Shown: in pieces, positions 8,747-48,570 of the stretch | Numbering within the stretch: position 1 is the stretch's first letter | Layout: each line of letters begins with the position of its first letter | NCBI RefSeq assembly: GCF_018350175.1 | Contig: NC_058375.1 | Span: forward strand, 45,508,001 to 45,572,000 | Length of the DNA: 64,000 nucleotides | Origin: Felis catus | Lineage: Eukaryota | Direction of reading: 5' to 3' | Translations under genes and position numbers: made by a program | Notes under the pieces: model-generated | Seen by the model: the letters and a program-made list of their open reading frames with translations, nothing else | Databases searched by the model: none | What the model was told of the DNA's origin: nothing

Positions 8747-9114
8747 AAGGCTACAGAAGAAATTGATCTTATGTGAGAATTGAGGGGGGGATTCGGGAGC
8801 TCAGCCATGGGAAACTAACGTCTGACATTTTTATCATCCAGCTGAGAGGTTAAATTGAGAGTTAAGAAAAACGCTCTGGATTTCACTGAAGAAGTCAGAG
8901 CCGGAAACATAAATTCAGGACAGGTCAACACCATGATAGCATTTCAATTGTTGGGCGAAATAACATGTGGACACACAACTGACCATCAGTTTCAACAATG
9001 TACAAACTGGTGATCTGGACAAGAAAAGTTTTTGTGAGTGATGGAGTGAAAGCGTGTTTGGGGGAACATTCTAGAGAGAAGTGGAGGAGTGGAGCTCATG
9101 ACAGAATGTAGACG

Positions 9115-9227
9115 GAGCTGCCATTTGTCTTTGTTTAGCGTCGCAATCCCAGTCTGCACTTGCAGACCAGTGTTATATCCAGTTAAACGTGTCCCAGTCT
9201 GGATGATAAATTATATAACAATTCTAA
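9115..9227 (-). mobile_element. hAT-Blackjack MITE (MER94-like)
   Basis: Reverse complement TATATAATTTATCATCCAGACTGGGACAC resembles the MER94 left end. Confidence 0.55.
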
Positions 9228-9384
9228 GTACAGACAACTCTGTCTAGCTATCTATCAACATACTCAACCTGTTTGTCCATATAACAGTGCACTTCTTCCT
9301 GTTTGACTTCCGAGAAGTCACATGGCTCCCAGTCCAAAGAGCCAAGGCCTGGAGGACTCTCCCTAGGATGATCATTTTTAGTGG

Positions 9385-9520
9385 TGGCAACACAGTAGAA
9401 TCATCTAGAAACTAGGGCCCTACCCTCAATAATTTTAATTCATTCCACCTGAAGTAAAGCCTGGGCCTGTTTTTCCTCTAGGAGATTCTAATGTGTGGCC
9501 AAGGAGCGGAGCCACTACCC
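9385..9520. mobile_element. MER5-type hAT-Charlie MITE
   Basis: AGAATCATCTAG...GGAGATTCTAATGTGTGGCCAAGG...GAGCCACT. Confidence 0.55.
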
Positions 9521-10166
9521 TGATTAATGAAGAAGCAAGCAGCGAGTGGCTCTGATAAGGTTATCATACACCAGTCTTTAGAAATCTGTCCAGAATCCTC
9601 CTTCCTGCTCATCCTCTGCTCAATGCTCTGGTTCATATAGTCATTTTCTCTACCTTGGGCTATGCTATTGGCATTGCTCTCCAGATAGTTTCTTTGCCCC
9701 TGAGCTAGCCATCTCCAGTCCATTTTCTCTCATATGAACAACTTATTCCTCTCAACAGACTCTGTCCTTCCTTTAGACATCTGATGTCGTTTGACGGACT
9801 TGAGGTTAACGTTCAAATTTCTTAAAATGTCATTCGAAGTCACATCAGTGCTCAAGAGTTGCACCGTGAATGAGGAAGGAATAAATGGGCTCAGACCACC
9901 AGGGTAAACAGAGGCGTGAACAGAGGATGAGTGACAGAACCGAGCAACATGGGCTTGAATGGGGGGCTTTCAAAGTCCCCCCAGAACTTGAGCAATCTAC
10001 GATAGTAAGGAATTTCTGATTCGACACAAAGTCTGAGGCACATTGTGCTCATGCAAACCTTACCTGGAGATGAGCTGGGGTACAGGGAGGAGGGGAAAGT
10101 AGGGAGTGAGATCCCTCATCTCTCACTCGTCCCCACCCCGCCATTACCTATATCCCAGTCGCGCTT

Positions 10167-10202
10167 GCATTGGTGGTTCAGTGGTAGAATTGTCGCCTGC
10201 CA
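10167..10202 (+). pseudogene. Tailless retropseudogene: 5' half of tRNA-Gly(GCC)
   Basis: GCATTGGTGGTTCAGTGGTAGAATTGTCGCCTGCCA is 35/36 identical to the recalled mammalian tRNA-Gly-GCC 5' half; anticodon at 10199-10201; no T-arm or B-box; direct repeat CCAGTCGC at 10155-10162 and 10200-10207. Confidence 0.92.
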
Positions 10203-12569
10203 GTCGCACAGAGAAATTACACTTGTTCCCCAAACAAGTCGCCCTCTCTCGCCTCCAGGCTTCAGCACATATTATATCCTCCTCCTGGATTGCTCTTTAT
10301 CTCCCTTCCGCAACGAATTAATTTACACTCATCCCTTAGACCCTGGCTGCATGATAAGTCCCGCTGGCAAGGTTTCCCTGACACCTGTCACCCCCTTCCC
10401 CACCGCCTCTACCAAGCCTGGATCGAGGGCCTTTTCCACACCTTCCCTCAGCACACCAATGGTCACTGTACATGTCTATCTTCCCAGCTAGGCTGCAGGG
10501 ACCACATCTATCAGTTCAAAGCTTAATAACTCCTGGTTGAATAAACACTACTATGAATTCCATCTAAAGGGTTAGGGGAAATACCTAACATAAGCCCCCC
10601 CAAAATCACAGGTGCACAACTCTCCTCTGACATGTGAAGCCCCAAGGATGGCACACCTAACCTGGGCCTTGTTTTGCCTGGCCCCCATGGGTGGACACGT
10701 GCTTCACTTTGGCCCTGGTGCCTGCGACGTATGATTCATGCTGAAAGCACATCTGAAACTCTCATCTTTATAGCTCTTTTCTGAGAAAATTACCCAATCT
10801 GGCCGTCCTTCTGGCCCCACTCGACAGATCACAATAAGCCAGGCCAGATGGGAGGGGGGGAATGAACTCCACCATCAAATTGTCCAACGCCTGAAAAATG
10901 TTGGCTTTGGAATGATGCAGGCCCTCTCTTGTGCACTGACTAGAAACGGAGAAGGTGTGCCCTGCCAGGCCAAGGCAGTGAGGTCTCTGTGTTCCTGGCA
11001 GAGGCCCCCAAGCCAGCTCTGTCTCCACAGCAGAGCTCCCTGCCAGGTGGGGCGTCACAGCTGCGGAATCAGAGACGTTGTGCAAGAAGAGAAAGAAGTG
11101 TCCAACTCAGCGAAAGGACTCTTGGAGAGCAAGCTTGGGGGAGAGTGGGAGTCCCGAGCGAGGCCAAGAATCATGAAATCAAGTCCACGTGGCAAGAGCT
11201 AAGGATCTTAGCCGCAGCAAGGTCTAGAGGGAAGCGAACGAGCAAACGTCAGGGGGGAGAATGAGCGTGGTCAGAACACACAAGGAATTCCAGTGTTTCC
11301 TTACAGCCTGCTGTTTGTTGCAGAACTTTCTACGGAGTCAGGTTGTGTATTAATTTATTCACCAGGCATTTATGGGGGCCTTTGGACTTAGCTCACTTGA
11401 TGTGCACAACTACCCTTGCTTCTATTATTATGGCCATTTTAGAAATGAGGAAATTAAATTTCAGTGAGGCTCACAAGTGATCAAAGTGGGCTTTATGCCC
11501 AGGGCTTGTCTGATCCAAAGCCCCTGTTCTGGCTTGGAGCCCATCCCGAACCCCCTCGTGGGCTGAACGACCCTGAGCAAAGGCATTCTCTCTTACCTCA
11601 TCTATAAAACGAGGGTGCTGTAACCACTGACACCATCTGTATAAAACAATTTGGTCACCCACAGGCATCATGCAAATCTGAGTTGCATGTATTTGTTTAT
11701 TTGCCTGCTTGTTTCTTTATATTTTTTTTTTCATTCTGCAACAAAGCCTACATAAGACCACACACAGTAAAATAACACCGTCCAGTAACGTGAAGACCAG
11801 TGCAGATGTACAAAAGAGATTAGTTTCTCCGCCTGATAAATCTTCACAGAGAAAGACTTCGCAGGCACAAATAAAACCCAAGGAATCCAATCTCACATTC
11901 ATAAAATCATTCATTCAACAAACCCTTCCTAAGCCGCCGCATTGGGCCAAACCCGAGTGCAGCATATAAATCATGAATAAAACACAGTCCCTGCCCTCAA
12001 GGATCTCAGAGCCTAGAAGAGAAAACAGAGTAATAAACAGGCCACTTTACAAGAGTGCCCAGCACTACAGGAAAGAAAAACACAGCAAACTGCAAGTTTG
12101 GGGAGTGACGGAAGGGCACCTAACCCGAGAAAGCCCTCCTGGAGGCAGGAACTTGTGATTTTCCGCCCCGCCCCCTCCCCGAACGAACTGGATTCTGGGG
12201 GTGAAAGAAGAGTGGGGAGGAGTGGGTGTGTGAGTTGGCAGGTCTCTCGAACTGCAAATAATTGGCCTGGCTGAGGCTTAAAGGTGTAGGGGAGAGTGGG
12301 CTACGTATGACGAAGTTCCTCAAGCTACGAGAACTCCCCTCACTGTGCTCACGAGTGTCCCCATATCCAGAGCCCAGTGAGACATCAGAGAGTCTTCCAG
12401 AGCCTCCGAGGGCCCTGTGCCTCACTCAGATCCATTAGCTTCTCTAGCCGCTCCTACAGGTAGGCCTTAACGACCTCGTAGCTACGCCACATCTCACTTC
12501 CCCTACAAGCAAAGACAGGCAGCCCAAAGCTGCCTAGATTATGCCCATTCCCCTTAGCTAAATGCTTCA

Positions 12570-15725: not shown

Positions 15726-15948
15726 GGGGCGCCTGGGTGGCGCAGTCGGCTAAGCGTCTGACTTCAGCCAGGTCACGATCTCGCGGTCCGTGAGTTCGAG
15801 CCCCGTGTCAGGCTCTGGGCTGATGGCTCAGAACCTGGAGCCTGTTTCCGATTCTGTGTCTCCCTCTCTCTCTGCCCCTCCCCCATTCATGCTCTGTCTC
15901 TCTCTGTCCCAAAAAAAAAAAAATAAATAAACGTTGAAAAAAAAAAAA
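15726..15948 (+). mobile_element. CAN-SINE, young felid subfamily
   Basis: Diagnostic GTGGCGCAGTCGG / CAGCCAGGTCACGATCTCGCGG; perfect 17-bp TSD AAGATGTTTGTACACCA. Confidence 0.98.
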
Positions 15949-16079
15949 AAGATGTTTGTACACCATAATTTCTTTCATGGTGATTTTCATATTATTTCAT
16001 CAGCTTTGGCCGAGAGCAAGTCACAGTGATATGGAGGCAGAGCTCGTACACAGGCGCGACGACATCAGGAATTATTTAA

Positions 16080-21614: not shown

Positions 21615-21693
21615 ATATTGTTTCCATACAATTCCTTATCCCATGCCGCCATACTGTTTCCATACAATTCCTTATCCCATGCCGCCATACTGT
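21615..21693. repeat. 36-bp tandem duplication (2.2 copies)
   Basis: ATA(T/C)TGTTTCCATACAATTCCTTATCCCATGCCGCC twice, then ATACTGT. Confidence 0.98.
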
Positions 21694-33592: not shown

Positions 33593-34062
33593 ACAACACA
33601 TGACATACGCACAACACACAGGACACACAACCACACACACAACACACACAACATGCATCACACATACACACAGCCACACACAACACACACACAACACACA
33701 ACATACAACACGCATGACACACAACACACAACATATGACATATGCACGACACACATGACACACAACCACACACAACACACAACATGCATCACACATACAG
33801 CCACACACAGCATACACACAACACACACGACACACAACACACAACAATGACACACAACATACACACAACATGCACATGATACACAACCACATGCACAACA
33901 CACACGACACACACGACACATGCCACACAACACACACACAACACATATACACTATACACAATGCACAACACACATATATCACAACGTACACCATCCACAC
34001 ACCGCACAAACACACATACAACACACACTATACACAACACACAACACACACCATACACATAT

Positions 34063-34095
<33 letters not shown>
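33593..34095. repeat. Degenerate CA-rich simple repeat ending in pure (CA)n
   Basis: ACACACAAC / ACATGACAC motifs, very few G on the + strand. Confidence 0.97.
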
Positions 34096-34097
<2 letters not shown>

Positions 34098-34439
34098 CAC
34101 AGGTGGCCTTCTTGATCCCTGCTCTCACACCCTATGCCGCTCCCCACTGCCAATCGTCCCCGGTCCCCCGCTGCCCCGTTAATTCTTACACCATCACGCA
34201 CCTCAACACCATGGTGCCACAGTGGGCACGGAGTGCGGAGGACAAGGGCTCTCAAACCAGAAGGACCCGGGTCGTATGGCAGCCACATGACTTATCTATG
34301 TACCAGCCCCCCTTCCTCACCTGCAACCTGACAGAAAGAAAAAGAAAGGATTAAAGGATCGAAGATACATAAAGGACCGAGAAGAGTAGCTGGCACACAG
34401 TATAATCTCACGTTATTTCCCTTCCGCTGCCTCCCTTAA

Positions 34440-44051: not shown

Positions 44052-44886
44052 ATGGTGGAGGTGGTGGAGGTGGAGGTGGTCATGGACATGGCGATAGTAG
44101 AGGTGGGGGTGGTGATGGAGGTCGTGGTAGTAGAGGCCGTGGAGGTGGAGGTGGTGGAGGTGTTGCTGGTAGAAGCGGTTCTCGTGGTGACAGTGGCGGT
44201 GCAGGCGGAGGTGATGGTGGAGATGGTGGAGGTGGAGGTGGTGGTGATAGAGATAGTAGAGGTAGAGGAGGTGGTGGTGATAGACATGGAGGAGGTGGAG
44301 GAGATGGAGGTGGAAGAGGTGGAAGTAGAGGAGGTGGAGGAGGTTGAGGTNNNNNNNNNNNNNNNNNNNNNNNNNNNNNNNNNNNNNNNNNNNNNNNNNN
44401 NNNNNNNNNNNNNNNNNNNNNNNNNNNNNNNNNNNNNNNNNNNNNNNNNNNNNNNNNNNNNNNNNNNNNNNNNNNNNNNNNNNNNNNNNCAGGTGGTGGA
44501 GGCGGAGGAGGTGGCAGAGGTGGGGGTGATGGAGGTGGTGGTGGAGGAGGTGGTAGAGGTGGAGGAGGTGGAGGAGGTTGAGGTGATAGAGGTGGTGGTG
44601 GAGGAGGTGGTGAAGGTGGAGGAGGTGGTGGAGGTGGTGGAGGTGGAGGAGGTGGTGGAGGTGGAGGAGGTGGCAGAGGTGGGGGTGATGGAGGTGGTGA
44701 TGGAGGTGCAGGAGGTGGAGGAGGTCGTGGAGGCGGAGGTAATGGAGGTGAAGATGGTGGAGGTGACAGTGGTAGAGGTGGAGGAGGTGGAGGTCACAGA
44801 GGTGGTGGTGATGGAGGTGAAGGAGGTAGAAGAGGTGGTGGTGATGGAGGTGAAGGAGGTGGAAGAGGTGGAGGAGGTGGAGATGG
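44052..44886. repeat. G-rich (GGA/GGT)n low-complexity tract spanning a gap (N at 44351-44489)
   Basis: GGAGGTGGTGGAGGTGGAGG... trinucleotide-periodic repeat. Confidence 0.98.
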
Positions 44887-46019
44887 TAAACAAACAGCAC
44901 AACCTGTATCTTGAGATGGGGCGGGCTCCTTCATTGTTTTTCACTCGAGAGGCTGTGTACTCATCTCCACAATATACCACCTCCCAGCTCCTATTTACCA
45001 ATGATCTTTGAAACATCCTGAGCATGTCCCTCCCCCACAAACTCATCAACAGCAATAACTATGAATAAGAGTTTCACAACTTTACTTTGTCCGTATATTT
45101 TTACGTCCCTGACATCATTCTGTACAGACATTCTGTATCCTACTCTTTACTTAACATATTAAAAGTATATTCCCATGCCTTTAAATTTTGTATACACTTT
45201 ATTTTAACAACCACATGATATTGTAAAGATCTGCCCTAATTTATTTAACAACTCTCTTTTTACCAGGCATTTAGGTTGTTTCCAATTCTTGACTATTATA
45301 AATAATGTAGCAGTGAACGTTTCTGTCTGCATTTTGGATTACTTCCTTCGGCTAAATTCCTAGACACAGAATTACTGGGCCAAAAAATATGAACTCACAA
45401 CACATATTGCCATATTGTTATCCAGATCCTTCACATATCTGAAGACAATGATCATGCTGCCTTTTCTATAAGCTAAACACTCCCAGACCCTTCCACCTTC
45501 CTCATATAATTCAATTCCCAGTGCTGCCACCACTCTCGCCCCTTTTCCGGGGACGACTCTTAAGCTGGCATTCCAGATTCTTCCCCTCTGACCTACTTTA
45601 TCTCTGCCCCTCGTCTACCGCATCGCACCTCACTTTCCAGGCACCCTCCCCTCCAGTCAACCACAGCACCCTGCAGACGCCCAGTTCCTGCATTCTGCTA
45701 TTCATCTGTGGATTCTACTCCTTCAGTCCAGAATGCCTTTCACACTTTTGATGCCTGGGACAGTCAATCTCATCGGTCAAGACAGGGCTCAAATGCCGCC
45801 CCTGCCCTGAAGGCTCTTGACTCCTTCTCCCTGCCCCAGGCAGAACCAAAGTGCTCTGCCCACTCCACCCCTGTGCCACCTGGAATAGTAGAGAGCCCCA
45901 GCACGAAACAGACGGCCTGCTCATATCTGCATGACTCAGAAGTATTGAATAAAGGGATTCTTTGGGAATCCGTGGGCAGGATGTAAGGAAACTCTAAGAA
46001 ATAGCCAGTGTCCATGGGT

Positions 46020-46330
46020 CAGCAAGGCTTTTGACACCCCTATGTGCGAAAGAGTGAGGACAGGGCGAGGTTACTGGAACTCAGCAGGAAAGGGTCGTGT
46101 GGAGAGGAGCTGTGACTTCTCTCAAGGCCAAGGGAACCCCTGAAGAATAATACCTTGACTTTATTCGTCTTTGTCTTTTCCATCTCCTACCCAGGCTTCC
46201 ATTAGCAGAACTCAGCTAAGTCCAGGGACTAGGAAACCCACGGACTCAGTTCATACAGGTCAGCATCCTATGGTGCAGGGGTGTGGTAGAGAAGGGTGGA
46301 GGGCAGACCTGAAAGGGCAAAGAGAGAGCC
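46020..46330 (-). mobile_element. ERVL LTR fragment (LTR33-like)
   Basis: CATACAGGTCAGCATCC...GAGAAGGGTGGAGGGCAGACCTGAAAGGGCAAA. Confidence 0.65.
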
Positions 46331-46499
46331 CCATCTCACCCTATTAAAGCTCATTACCCTTTATTATGGTTAATTCTCAGCAGGTATGTTTCACCTTCTA
46401 GACTAAATATGTATTGTCTCACTCACTTCCAAACCATCTTTTGCACTATGACATGGCCACTTTGCTTTCAATCAACATTCTTCATGGCCCCAGTGTGTC

Positions 46500-46995
46500 C
46501 CCCCCTCGTTGCCTACAGATAAATATAAATGCATTGGCATGAATAATGCCCCTGTGGCTGGGCTCTTGCCTTCCTCACTTCCTTAGGGCCACCTCTCCCT
46601 TTCCTCCTACTTCACAATCCAGCCACATGAACACATGTCACTCCAGGAATACAGCATTGTCCATAAAGGGTCTATTCTTTTGTCCTGAGAACACTTCCCC
46701 CATTGGAAACCTCCTACTCATTCTCTAAGGCTCCGCTCAAGAGTAACTTCCACTGTGAAACTCCCAGATCCCTCCCCCCAGAGAGACTCTGGGCCACCTT
46801 CTCCTAAGTTCCTTTTATAGCCCATGTTTTACAGTACTTTACATTATAGATTTTTAACTCTGTGTCCCCACATAAATTGCAAGCTCCTTTAAGGCAGAGA
46901 CTACATCTTACTTCATCTATTTCCCTAGTACCTAAAGCCTCTGGCACATTGTAAACACTCAACATTAGATTAGTGAATGAAACATTGAATTGAAT
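46500..46995 (+). mobile_element. L2 3' end
   Basis: TTGCAAGCTCCTTTAAGGCAGAGAC...CTGGCACATTGTAAACACTCAA...TGAATTGAAT. Confidence 0.8.
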
Positions 46996-47246
46996 AAAGA
47001 CATTTGCAATTAATGTAGATTTTTCATTTGGTGCGTGGGTTTGTTTTTCAACATATGGTTGTTCTTTATGCACTTGTAGGGGATGAACGTGTGACAGAGG
47101 ACAGAAGCTTACGTCCTGAACATCTTTCGGCCTCAGCTGGCACTGGCCTCCGTCTGTCCTCAGCAGAACCTAGGCACGAATGTAGGCGTCCTTGGGAGGA
47201 CAAGGAGGAGATCCATGTAGAGCTTACCCATTGGACATCCATTTGA

Positions 47247-47522
47247 NNNNNNNNNNNNNNNNNNNNNNNNNNNNNNNNNNNNNNNNNNNNNNNNNNNNNN
47301 NNNNNNNNNNNNNNNNNNNNNNNNNNNNNNNNNNNNNNNNNNNNNNNNNNNNNNNNNNNNNNNNNNNNNNNNNNNNNNNNNNNNNNNNNNNNNNNNNNNN
47401 NNNNNNNNNNNNNNNNNNNNNNNNNNNNNNNNNNNNNNNNNNNNNNNNNNNNNNNNNNNNNNNNNNNNNNNNNNNNNNNNNNNNNNNNNNNNNNNNNNNN
47501 NNNNNNNNNNNNNNNNNNNNNN
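47247..47522. other. Assembly gap
   Basis: Run of N. Confidence 1.
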
Positions 47523-48570
47523 TCTGGCGGCTGCACAAACAGTGACCCGTGGAATTCACATTTTCATACTTGACTATGGTAGGCCAGCGTCCAGAGGTTA
47601 TTCTTGCTGTGTTTATGAAAGAGTGAAGCCTGTCAGGATAAGAAGGCTTCTGATGAAGTGCTTATTGAGAAAACATGCAGAGATTTCTGTTTCCCCAAAT
47701 TAGAGAAGGAGCTTATGATAAGAATCCTTTTCATTGATTTCTCCTCCTCAACTGCTTTCCTGCTGTCCCTCAGCATAATGACAAGCCCCGAGGTCCGGAC
47801 TTGTGAAGCAAGTCTTAGAGAAAATGCCCCAAAGTGGAATAGCTCATGGGGTCCTAACTCTCAGAATTGCACAAAGCTTCCGGGAAAGCGCACTGTACCT
47901 ATGATAGGGCCACCAGGCGAGGTGAACTGAAAAGGGATATTTGTTGTTGCCATTGGGCGGTTCTGTTAGAAACCACCCGCATGCTGCTTGTCTGATCACC
48001 CACCCGGGGCAAGTGGGAACGGCCTCTCGGGAGAAGGGAAAAGCGCCTTCGGAGAAAACCAGGGTGGAGGCAGGTAAATCACACCATAAAAGGGGACTTG
48101 TCAAACTGAACAGGGCTCAGCAAGGAACTTATGAGGACAAATAAGACCAGGGCAGTGGTGAGACAGAAGGTTCAGGGTTCAAGTGGATGTGAGGAGGGAC
48201 GCATAGGGCAATTCCTGCACTCACTAGCAGGCAATCGCTTTTTCAGCTGCTTTGTCTGCAGGCACGGATCTGCTGAGAGCATTGAGGGGGCAATGGAAGG
48301 GGACGTTGATGAGAAGCTACATTCAGCAGTCATTTTTGCCCTGGTTAATGTAAAATTGGGCAAAATCAGTTTGCCGAGTCACTGGTCAGTTCATTCAACA
48401 AACACTGCATCAAACTCTTCCTCCGTAACAGCCATTGTCCTGGGCCCTGAATTTACAAACATTTCTCTGTGCACTTGAGAGGCTCCTGGACTAGAAGGGT
48501 GACTGGTCTTCCTGATCTCCAGACGTGCGCCTGCTATCTGCTCCTTACTACAGCAGGAAGTTTCTCTCTC

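Follow-up and report, generated by a model that had tools for sequence, protein, structure and literature searches.

The window, as we call the whole 64,000-nt stretch analysed here (G000:C17:45508001-45572000, within a 2.43-Gb cat genome assembly), contains a 5' half of tRNA-Gly(GCC) that is almost certainly a tailless tRNA retropseudogene. The insert is real and its anatomy was confirmed (Table 1). We give a probability of roughly 0.7 to the reading in which the L1 reverse transcriptase would have been primed, from the end of a nicked chromosome, inside the anticodon loop of a precursor tRNA transcribed on contig C37. The copy is an ordinary member of its kind, one of dozens of inert copies in this genome.

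Table 1. Features of the inserted tRNA half, in positions of the window
Feature	Position	Strand	Remark
Left 8-nt direct repeat (putative target-site duplication)	10155..10162	+	identical to right copy
Four extra bases, equal to leader -4..-1 of the tRNA-Gly(GCC) gene G000:C37:2906917 (L015)	10163..10166	+	
tRNA-Gly(GCC) nt 1-36, ending at standard position 37	10167..10202	+	35/36 identical to 9 full genes
Single substitution (linear nt 26)	10192	+	differs from 23/23 full Gly genes examined
3-nt microhomology of anticodon loop and repeat (putative priming site)	10200..10202	+	tRNA linear nt 34-36
Right 8-nt direct repeat	10200..10207	+	first three bases are tRNA linear nt 34-36

The repeats enclose just 37 nt, which leader and tRNA explain in full, and the remaining 35 of the 71 nt of tRNA-Gly are missing. 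No oligo(A) or A-rich tail was found before or after the right repeat. The near-exact 36-nt half, its direct repeats, its four extra 5' bases and its missing tail are all as the original prediction had described them. That prediction also placed the end of the half in the anticodon loop, which holds, and cut it at the anticodon, which does not hold exactly, because the copy reaches one base 3' of the anticodon (10199-10201), to standard nt 37. Since three bases are common to tRNA and target, the true copy end may lie anywhere in linear nt 33-36. These three bases (CCA) do overlap the end of the tRNA copy as had been noted, but they are anticodon-loop sequence and not the 3' CCA tail. No tRNA was called at the insert by ARAGORN and Rfam gave no tRNA match there, with only chance-level matches in 9000-11500; the expectation that no intact tRNA would be called was thus correct, and the two programs found no gene with full cloverleaf, T-arm and B box. 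Because the T-arm and B box are missing, the insert is predicted to be inert.

An exact 8-nt repeat would arise between random flanks with P = 0.0095 in search windows of the type used by Noll et al., and with P = 0.00046 if forced to begin at nt 34; a reversed-pattern control over the whole genome gave 0 matches. Both flanks of the insert are single-copy (1/1 match each, in a search that skips very common words), and the insert therefore is not a genomic duplication; for the same reason no empty site could be found by way of an older repeat family. Of the 24 sequencing runs listed, 14 runs from 6 studies of the same organism contain 1.00 of 62 sampled window words, one of them possibly being the assembly's own sample and the figure being a sampling of words rather than read cover of the insert. 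An assembly error is unlikely, because 14 runs in 6 studies contain all sampled words. Of four runs with partial shares (X17-X20) that were compared with the flank upstream of the insert, three yielded no contig and the fourth yielded one of 209 nt that stops at 10092, no junction being reached, and their partial word shares are no evidence of polymorphism or expression.

Tailless tRNA retropseudogenes were reportedly set out by Schmitz et al. in 2004. The class was described again by Noll et al. 2015 (PMC5322556), with the screening rules that a copy be 5'-complete, at least 30 nt long, of more than 69% identity and 3'-truncated in a loop by at least 10 nt, that it lack oligo(A), be flanked by 8-35-nt repeats at least 70% identical, carry at most 20 nt of 5' extra sequence and not be a genomic duplication; 2-18 nt of complementarity between target and RNA were reported at the 3' end. 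The insert agrees with every one of these rules, with its 8-nt repeat at the lower limit and 3 nt of exact complementarity, and both the assignment to this class and the microhomology at the 3' junction that had been claimed for it (3 nt) are borne out. Like the published copies it is 5'-complete, loop-truncated and tailless, with direct repeats, 3' microhomology and precursor leader. In supplementary file 2 of Noll et al., taken as a human coordinate table, searched by term and read with inclusive coordinates, there are 96 Gly rows, 13 of them Gly-GCC, of which 10 span 34-37 nt and 6 span the same 36 nt as the window copy. The window copy differs in being a new locus in a carnivore, in its repeat at the 8-nt limit, in a site that seems unlike TT/WAAAAWW (a class average in Noll et al., not a screening rule) and in a repeat whose end resembles the source leader. 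Passages of Kojima 2010 cite 238 tRNA junctions from Schmitz 2004 and report that, of 25 non-coding RNA retrocopies of recent origin in human or chimpanzee, 22 had no poly(A).

Two further systems resemble the insert in part. The 'template choice' snRNA pseudogenes, as treated in sections of Doucet et al. 2015 (PMC4476161), are likewise attributed to internal priming on single-stranded RNA and have junction complementarity that blurs the nick, but their priming segments are purine-rich and their sites approximate TTTT/A, whereas the loop of the window copy has one A and its site is C-rich. The antisense tRNA-half/LINE-1 twin-priming chimeras, as presented in part of a bioRxiv preprint of 2025 (10.1101/2025.02.02.635956), share tRNA nt 1-37 as the inserted unit; they have L1 sequence, whereas the window half stands alone, with no L1 between its repeats. 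Among the papers that our searches listed there was no report of the insert locus and no relevant felid one, and the RetroSeeker paper (PMC11727581) does not mention tRNA. The locus is new, in a carnivore genome, and copies of the same kind have already been catalogued in human.

Sibling copies were sought with the 5' ends of three tRNAs. An exact 25-nt Gly 5'-end search of the genome gave 22 matches, comprising 14 full genes (10 GCC and 4 CCC) and 8 halves; the right repeat begins at linear nt 34 in five of the eight halves and covers those bases with one mismatch in a sixth, while two (L005 and L013) have no clear junction repeat. With at most 2 mismatches allowed, 11 of 28 tRNA-Asp matches and 40 of 62 tRNA-Glu matches were without the 3' half, and at least 2 of these truncated matches look like decayed longer copies. 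The repeat filter was passed by 7 Asp and 25 Glu halves (32 with the same anatomy), the other 19 rows being dropped for having no repeat (7) or a repeat shorter than 11 nt or starting outside nt 31-39 (12). Together with six Gly halves, L005 and L013 being excluded, these made up a set of 38 halves. Of the 38, 23 have a microhomology of 2-3 nt at the 3' junction (3 nt in the window copy), the median 5' extra is 4 nt (likewise 4 in the window copy) and the median repeat is 16 nt. The window copy is thus typical in end point, microhomology and 5' extra and atypical only in its 8-nt repeat, the shortest of the 38 in a ranking for which Asp and Glu rows had been filtered at 11 nt or more; the repeats of the other five Gly halves are 14-21 nt long. 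Across the 38 halves the target bases before the nt-37 register are pyrimidine-rich and follow the loop (C at -1 in 31/38, T at -4 in 25/38), and those after it are A/T-rich; the window target agrees with this run of pyrimidines ahead of nt 37 and equals loop nt 33-37 at 4 of 5 positions.

That the extra bases would be pre-tRNA leader and name the source gene had also been proposed, and this found good agreement. We recovered 23 full Gly genes with the tRNA 3' part, carrying 13 distinct leaders, and the four extra bases occur upstream of only one of them (L015, C37:2906917), where the match runs over 5 contiguous nt. By chance, any of the 10 GCC leaders would be matched over 4 nt with a probability of 0.027 and over 5 nt with one of 0.0064. 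L015 is a full-length gene that has a long T terminator, is flanked by CpG-rich sequence (o/e 0.79) and lies within a tRNA cluster among Lys-TTT, Gln-CTG, Leu-TAG, Ser-CGA and Thr-AGT genes, in an order that we take to resemble the human 17p13 cluster. On these sequence comparisons it is very probably the source gene, and the leader match makes it likely that the template was an unprocessed precursor tRNA. As a control, both delimitable halves with the CCC-type anticodon base, L012 (C18:139772846) and L005 (C13:72466227), fit the Gly-CCC leader best, at 6/7 and 6/8 positions respectively. Among the 28 of the 38 halves with at least 3 extra bases, the leader run averages 3.86 nt against own-type leaders and 1.73 nt against other-type leaders (Wilcoxon P = 3.7e-5, CpG decay allowed). 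A 4-nt leader match was reached by 14 of these 28 and not by the other 14, hence the extra bases are not always leader. The templates of the sibling halves were likely unprocessed precursors too, and Noll et al. (PMC5322556) also note precursor templates for this class.

Several observations on donor genes were made along the way. Four tailless Glu halves (L085 at C11:86525362, L094 at C27:14212216, L108 at C2:4549347 and L131 at C42:6370605) match over 5-7 nt the leader of a tandemly repeated Glu-CTC gene on C42, which suggests this array as a frequent donor of tailless halves. The array (G000:C42:63430000-63480000; L033-L038, L044, L045, L050) is built of units of ~5.9 kb, each with Leu-CAG, Gly-GCC, Glu-CTC, Gly-TCC and Asp-GTC genes, and presumably resembles the known mammalian tRNA tandem array. 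Four other Glu halves (L082, L090, L093 and L130) have identical last four extra bases, for which no match longer than 2 nt was found to any full Glu gene recovered here, and their source gene may be lost, diverged or absent from the assembly. On contig C57 (51 kb) an inverted Gly-CCC pair is repeated at 44630-47819, and the flanks compared are identical to those at C17:104351876-104355079; C57 is possibly an unplaced duplicate or haplotype of that stretch of C17.

In the reading we prefer, the 3' end of the bottom DNA strand would pair with loop bases 35-37 of the precursor, L1 ORF2p would copy by target-primed reverse transcription until it reached the 5' end of the precursor, around -4/-5, and the copy would then join the staggered top-strand end, whereby 8 nt would be duplicated; the event would have taken place in the germline or early embryo and then spread. 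The role of L1 ORF2p in the class was deduced by Noll et al. (PMC5322556) from phylogenetic co-distribution, there being no copies in species without full-length LINEs. The window site does not look like a canonical L1 endonuclease site: under a rough matrix of our own making, its priming end falls at the 31st percentile of random and its far end at the 48th. Under the same rough matrix the lowest of the six Gly halves is at the 23rd percentile and the highest at the 96th. The 38 halves show modest endonuclease-site enrichment at both ends (P = 0.033 and 0.008). Priming from a second nick, with the endonuclease site at the far end of the repeat, had been suspected from the six Gly halves and was not borne out, as the two ends of the 38 halves did not differ (paired P = 0.61).

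The best-surviving alternative, though an unlikely one, keeps the class and the enzyme but has the precursor already cleaved just after the anticodon, so that a leader-bearing 5' half was primed at its end. The end points do cluster tightly, both in the halves of this genome and in the human lengths, yet priming in a single-stranded loop should cluster them just as much, and the target bases upstream of nt 37 follow each tRNA's own loop in the 38 halves. The literature is divided in the same way. Part of the 2025 preprint (10.1101/2025.02.02.635956) favours prior cleavage and takes the 1-37-nt tRNA halves in L1 chimeras as pre-cleaved, whereas Noll et al. (PMC5322556) sought truncated 5S and U2 intermediates, found none and favour internal priming; furthermore, angiogenin halves are given in passages of PMC11740426 as 30-35 nt long and derived from mature tRNA. 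The 'cut at the anticodon' of the original prediction, understood as cleavage, thus loses support from Noll et al. and gains it from the preprint. Internal priming and prior cleavage are disputed in print, and the sequence is compatible with both.

It is improbable that a DNA break was patched here from a template, either by a repair polymerase, for which the polymerase-theta type is a candidate, or by endonuclease-independent reverse transcription, with the RNA or the tRNA gene being copied. The poor endonuclease site, the short repeat and the microhomology at both junctions would suit such a patch, and passages of Kojima 2010 describe tailless copies as having 3' microhomologies similar to those at L1 insertions that are endonuclease-independent, and call short duplications rare in trans-mobilised copies. 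The 38 copies, however, end time and again at the anticodon loop on one side and no more than ~11 nt from +1 on the other, which a DNA template would not bring about, the sibling repeats of 12-21 nt are L1-like, and the absence of such copies from species without full-length LINEs (PMC5322556) also speaks against a patch.

Capture of a mature, sperm-type 5' tRF-Gly-GCC, a link drawn in the original prediction, is less probable still. Here the four extra bases would be untemplated or a chance leader match, and two facts are in keeping with this: tRF-Gly-GCC is a well-known sperm RNA according to part of PMC11740426, and untemplated 5' bases are present in sibling copies. The leader-bearing template nevertheless argues against a mature sperm fragment, since tRFs are described in that part of the source as coming from mature tRNA. 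A copy of a mature 5' tRF or tiRNA would start at +1 without leader; the insert instead has the leader match, with P = 0.006-0.027 by chance. Moreover, a retained leader is the trend of the class, and Glu and Asp halves have the same form, so that Gly-GCC is not singled out.

Equally doubtful is the proposal that the 8-nt repeat is RNA-derived rather than a target duplication, a leader-bearing half having been ligated head to tail into a circle or dimer and copied into the germline over more than one unit. Its attraction is that the final base of the left repeat equals source leader -5 and its final five bases equal leader -7..-3, so that on both sides the repeat reads loop bases 35-37 followed by leader -7..-3. 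A 5-nt leader match has P = 0.0036 per random word, the other 37 halves reach at most 3 nt, and the window repeat is the shortest of the 38. Against this, an extra 2-nt stutter is required, the test was chosen after the match had been seen, with 38 copies expected to give ~0.14 such matches, the window contains the five-base word 20 times, one of them 35 nt downstream, and the target pattern of the class is kept by the two bases that precede the left repeat. Chance is an adequate explanation of the likeness between repeat and leader, and so would be a 5' join guided by microhomology that slipped by 2 nt. A search of the literature on ligated or circular tRNA halves in retrotransposition found nothing relevant. 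Finally, nothing was found in favour of a tRNA gene having been deleted down to this remnant, or of an artefact of the assembly, and either is hardly credible given the exact flanking repeats, a flank CpG o/e of about 0.3 against 0.79 at the source gene, and the 14 independent run assemblies noted above.

As to age, all four CpGs in 10155-10207 are intact, while the Asp and Glu halves retain 20 of 56 CpGs outside the search seed and four of the eight Gly halves keep theirs, a comparison biased by the fact that exact repeats made the copy noticeable. The copy does carry one transversion. CpG retention in the sequence thus only suggests that the insert is relatively young, and to that extent is consistent with the 'recent' capture claimed earlier.

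The surroundings of the insert have a local CpG o/e of about 0.3. Pfam searches of 20 of the 29 long frames and of 98 shorter frames in the first 30 kb gave no match above the cut-off (one was sub-threshold), and Rfam gave no gathering-level match in 10300-64000. The element at 15727-15950, which we take to be a carnivore tRNA-derived SINE, is young, ends in an A-tail, has a flanking repeat of 16-17 nt and a TT/AAGA site, and was miscalled tRNA-Ala by ARAGORN. Such a SINE resembles the insert in its tRNA-related head, flanking direct repeat and presumed L1 mobilisation; it differs in having a body, the A-tail, the longer repeat and the TT/AAGA site and in being able to propagate, the window half having none of these. 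SINE heads probably account for the other three ARAGORN calls (30307, 41405 and 57450) as well. The tandem arrays at 33593-34101 and 44108-44886 are long, degenerate and of the CA-rich and GGTGGA types, and explain the long open frames there, and a 36-nt unit is present in 2.2 copies at 21615-21693. Just upstream of the insertion, at 10075-10152, an inverted stretch rich in purines and in pyrimidines gave weak miRNA-like Rfam matches (E 0.24-9.4, far below gathering) and could fold into a hairpin close to the target.

On the reading preferred here, internal priming of L1 reverse transcriptase on the C37 precursor, the single insert matters little; only the ligated RNA would be a surprise and, if true, would testify in the genome to pre-tRNA halves that were circular or concatenated. 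The insert may nevertheless serve as a presence/absence marker for carnivore phylogeny, and it is a trap for small-RNA mapping, as tRF-Gly-GCC reads could mis-map to it. It would also record the likely transcription of the C37 tRNA gene, from a start near -4/-5, in germline or early embryo, and the set of leader-tagged halves may be readable as a fossil survey of which tRNA genes were active in the germline.
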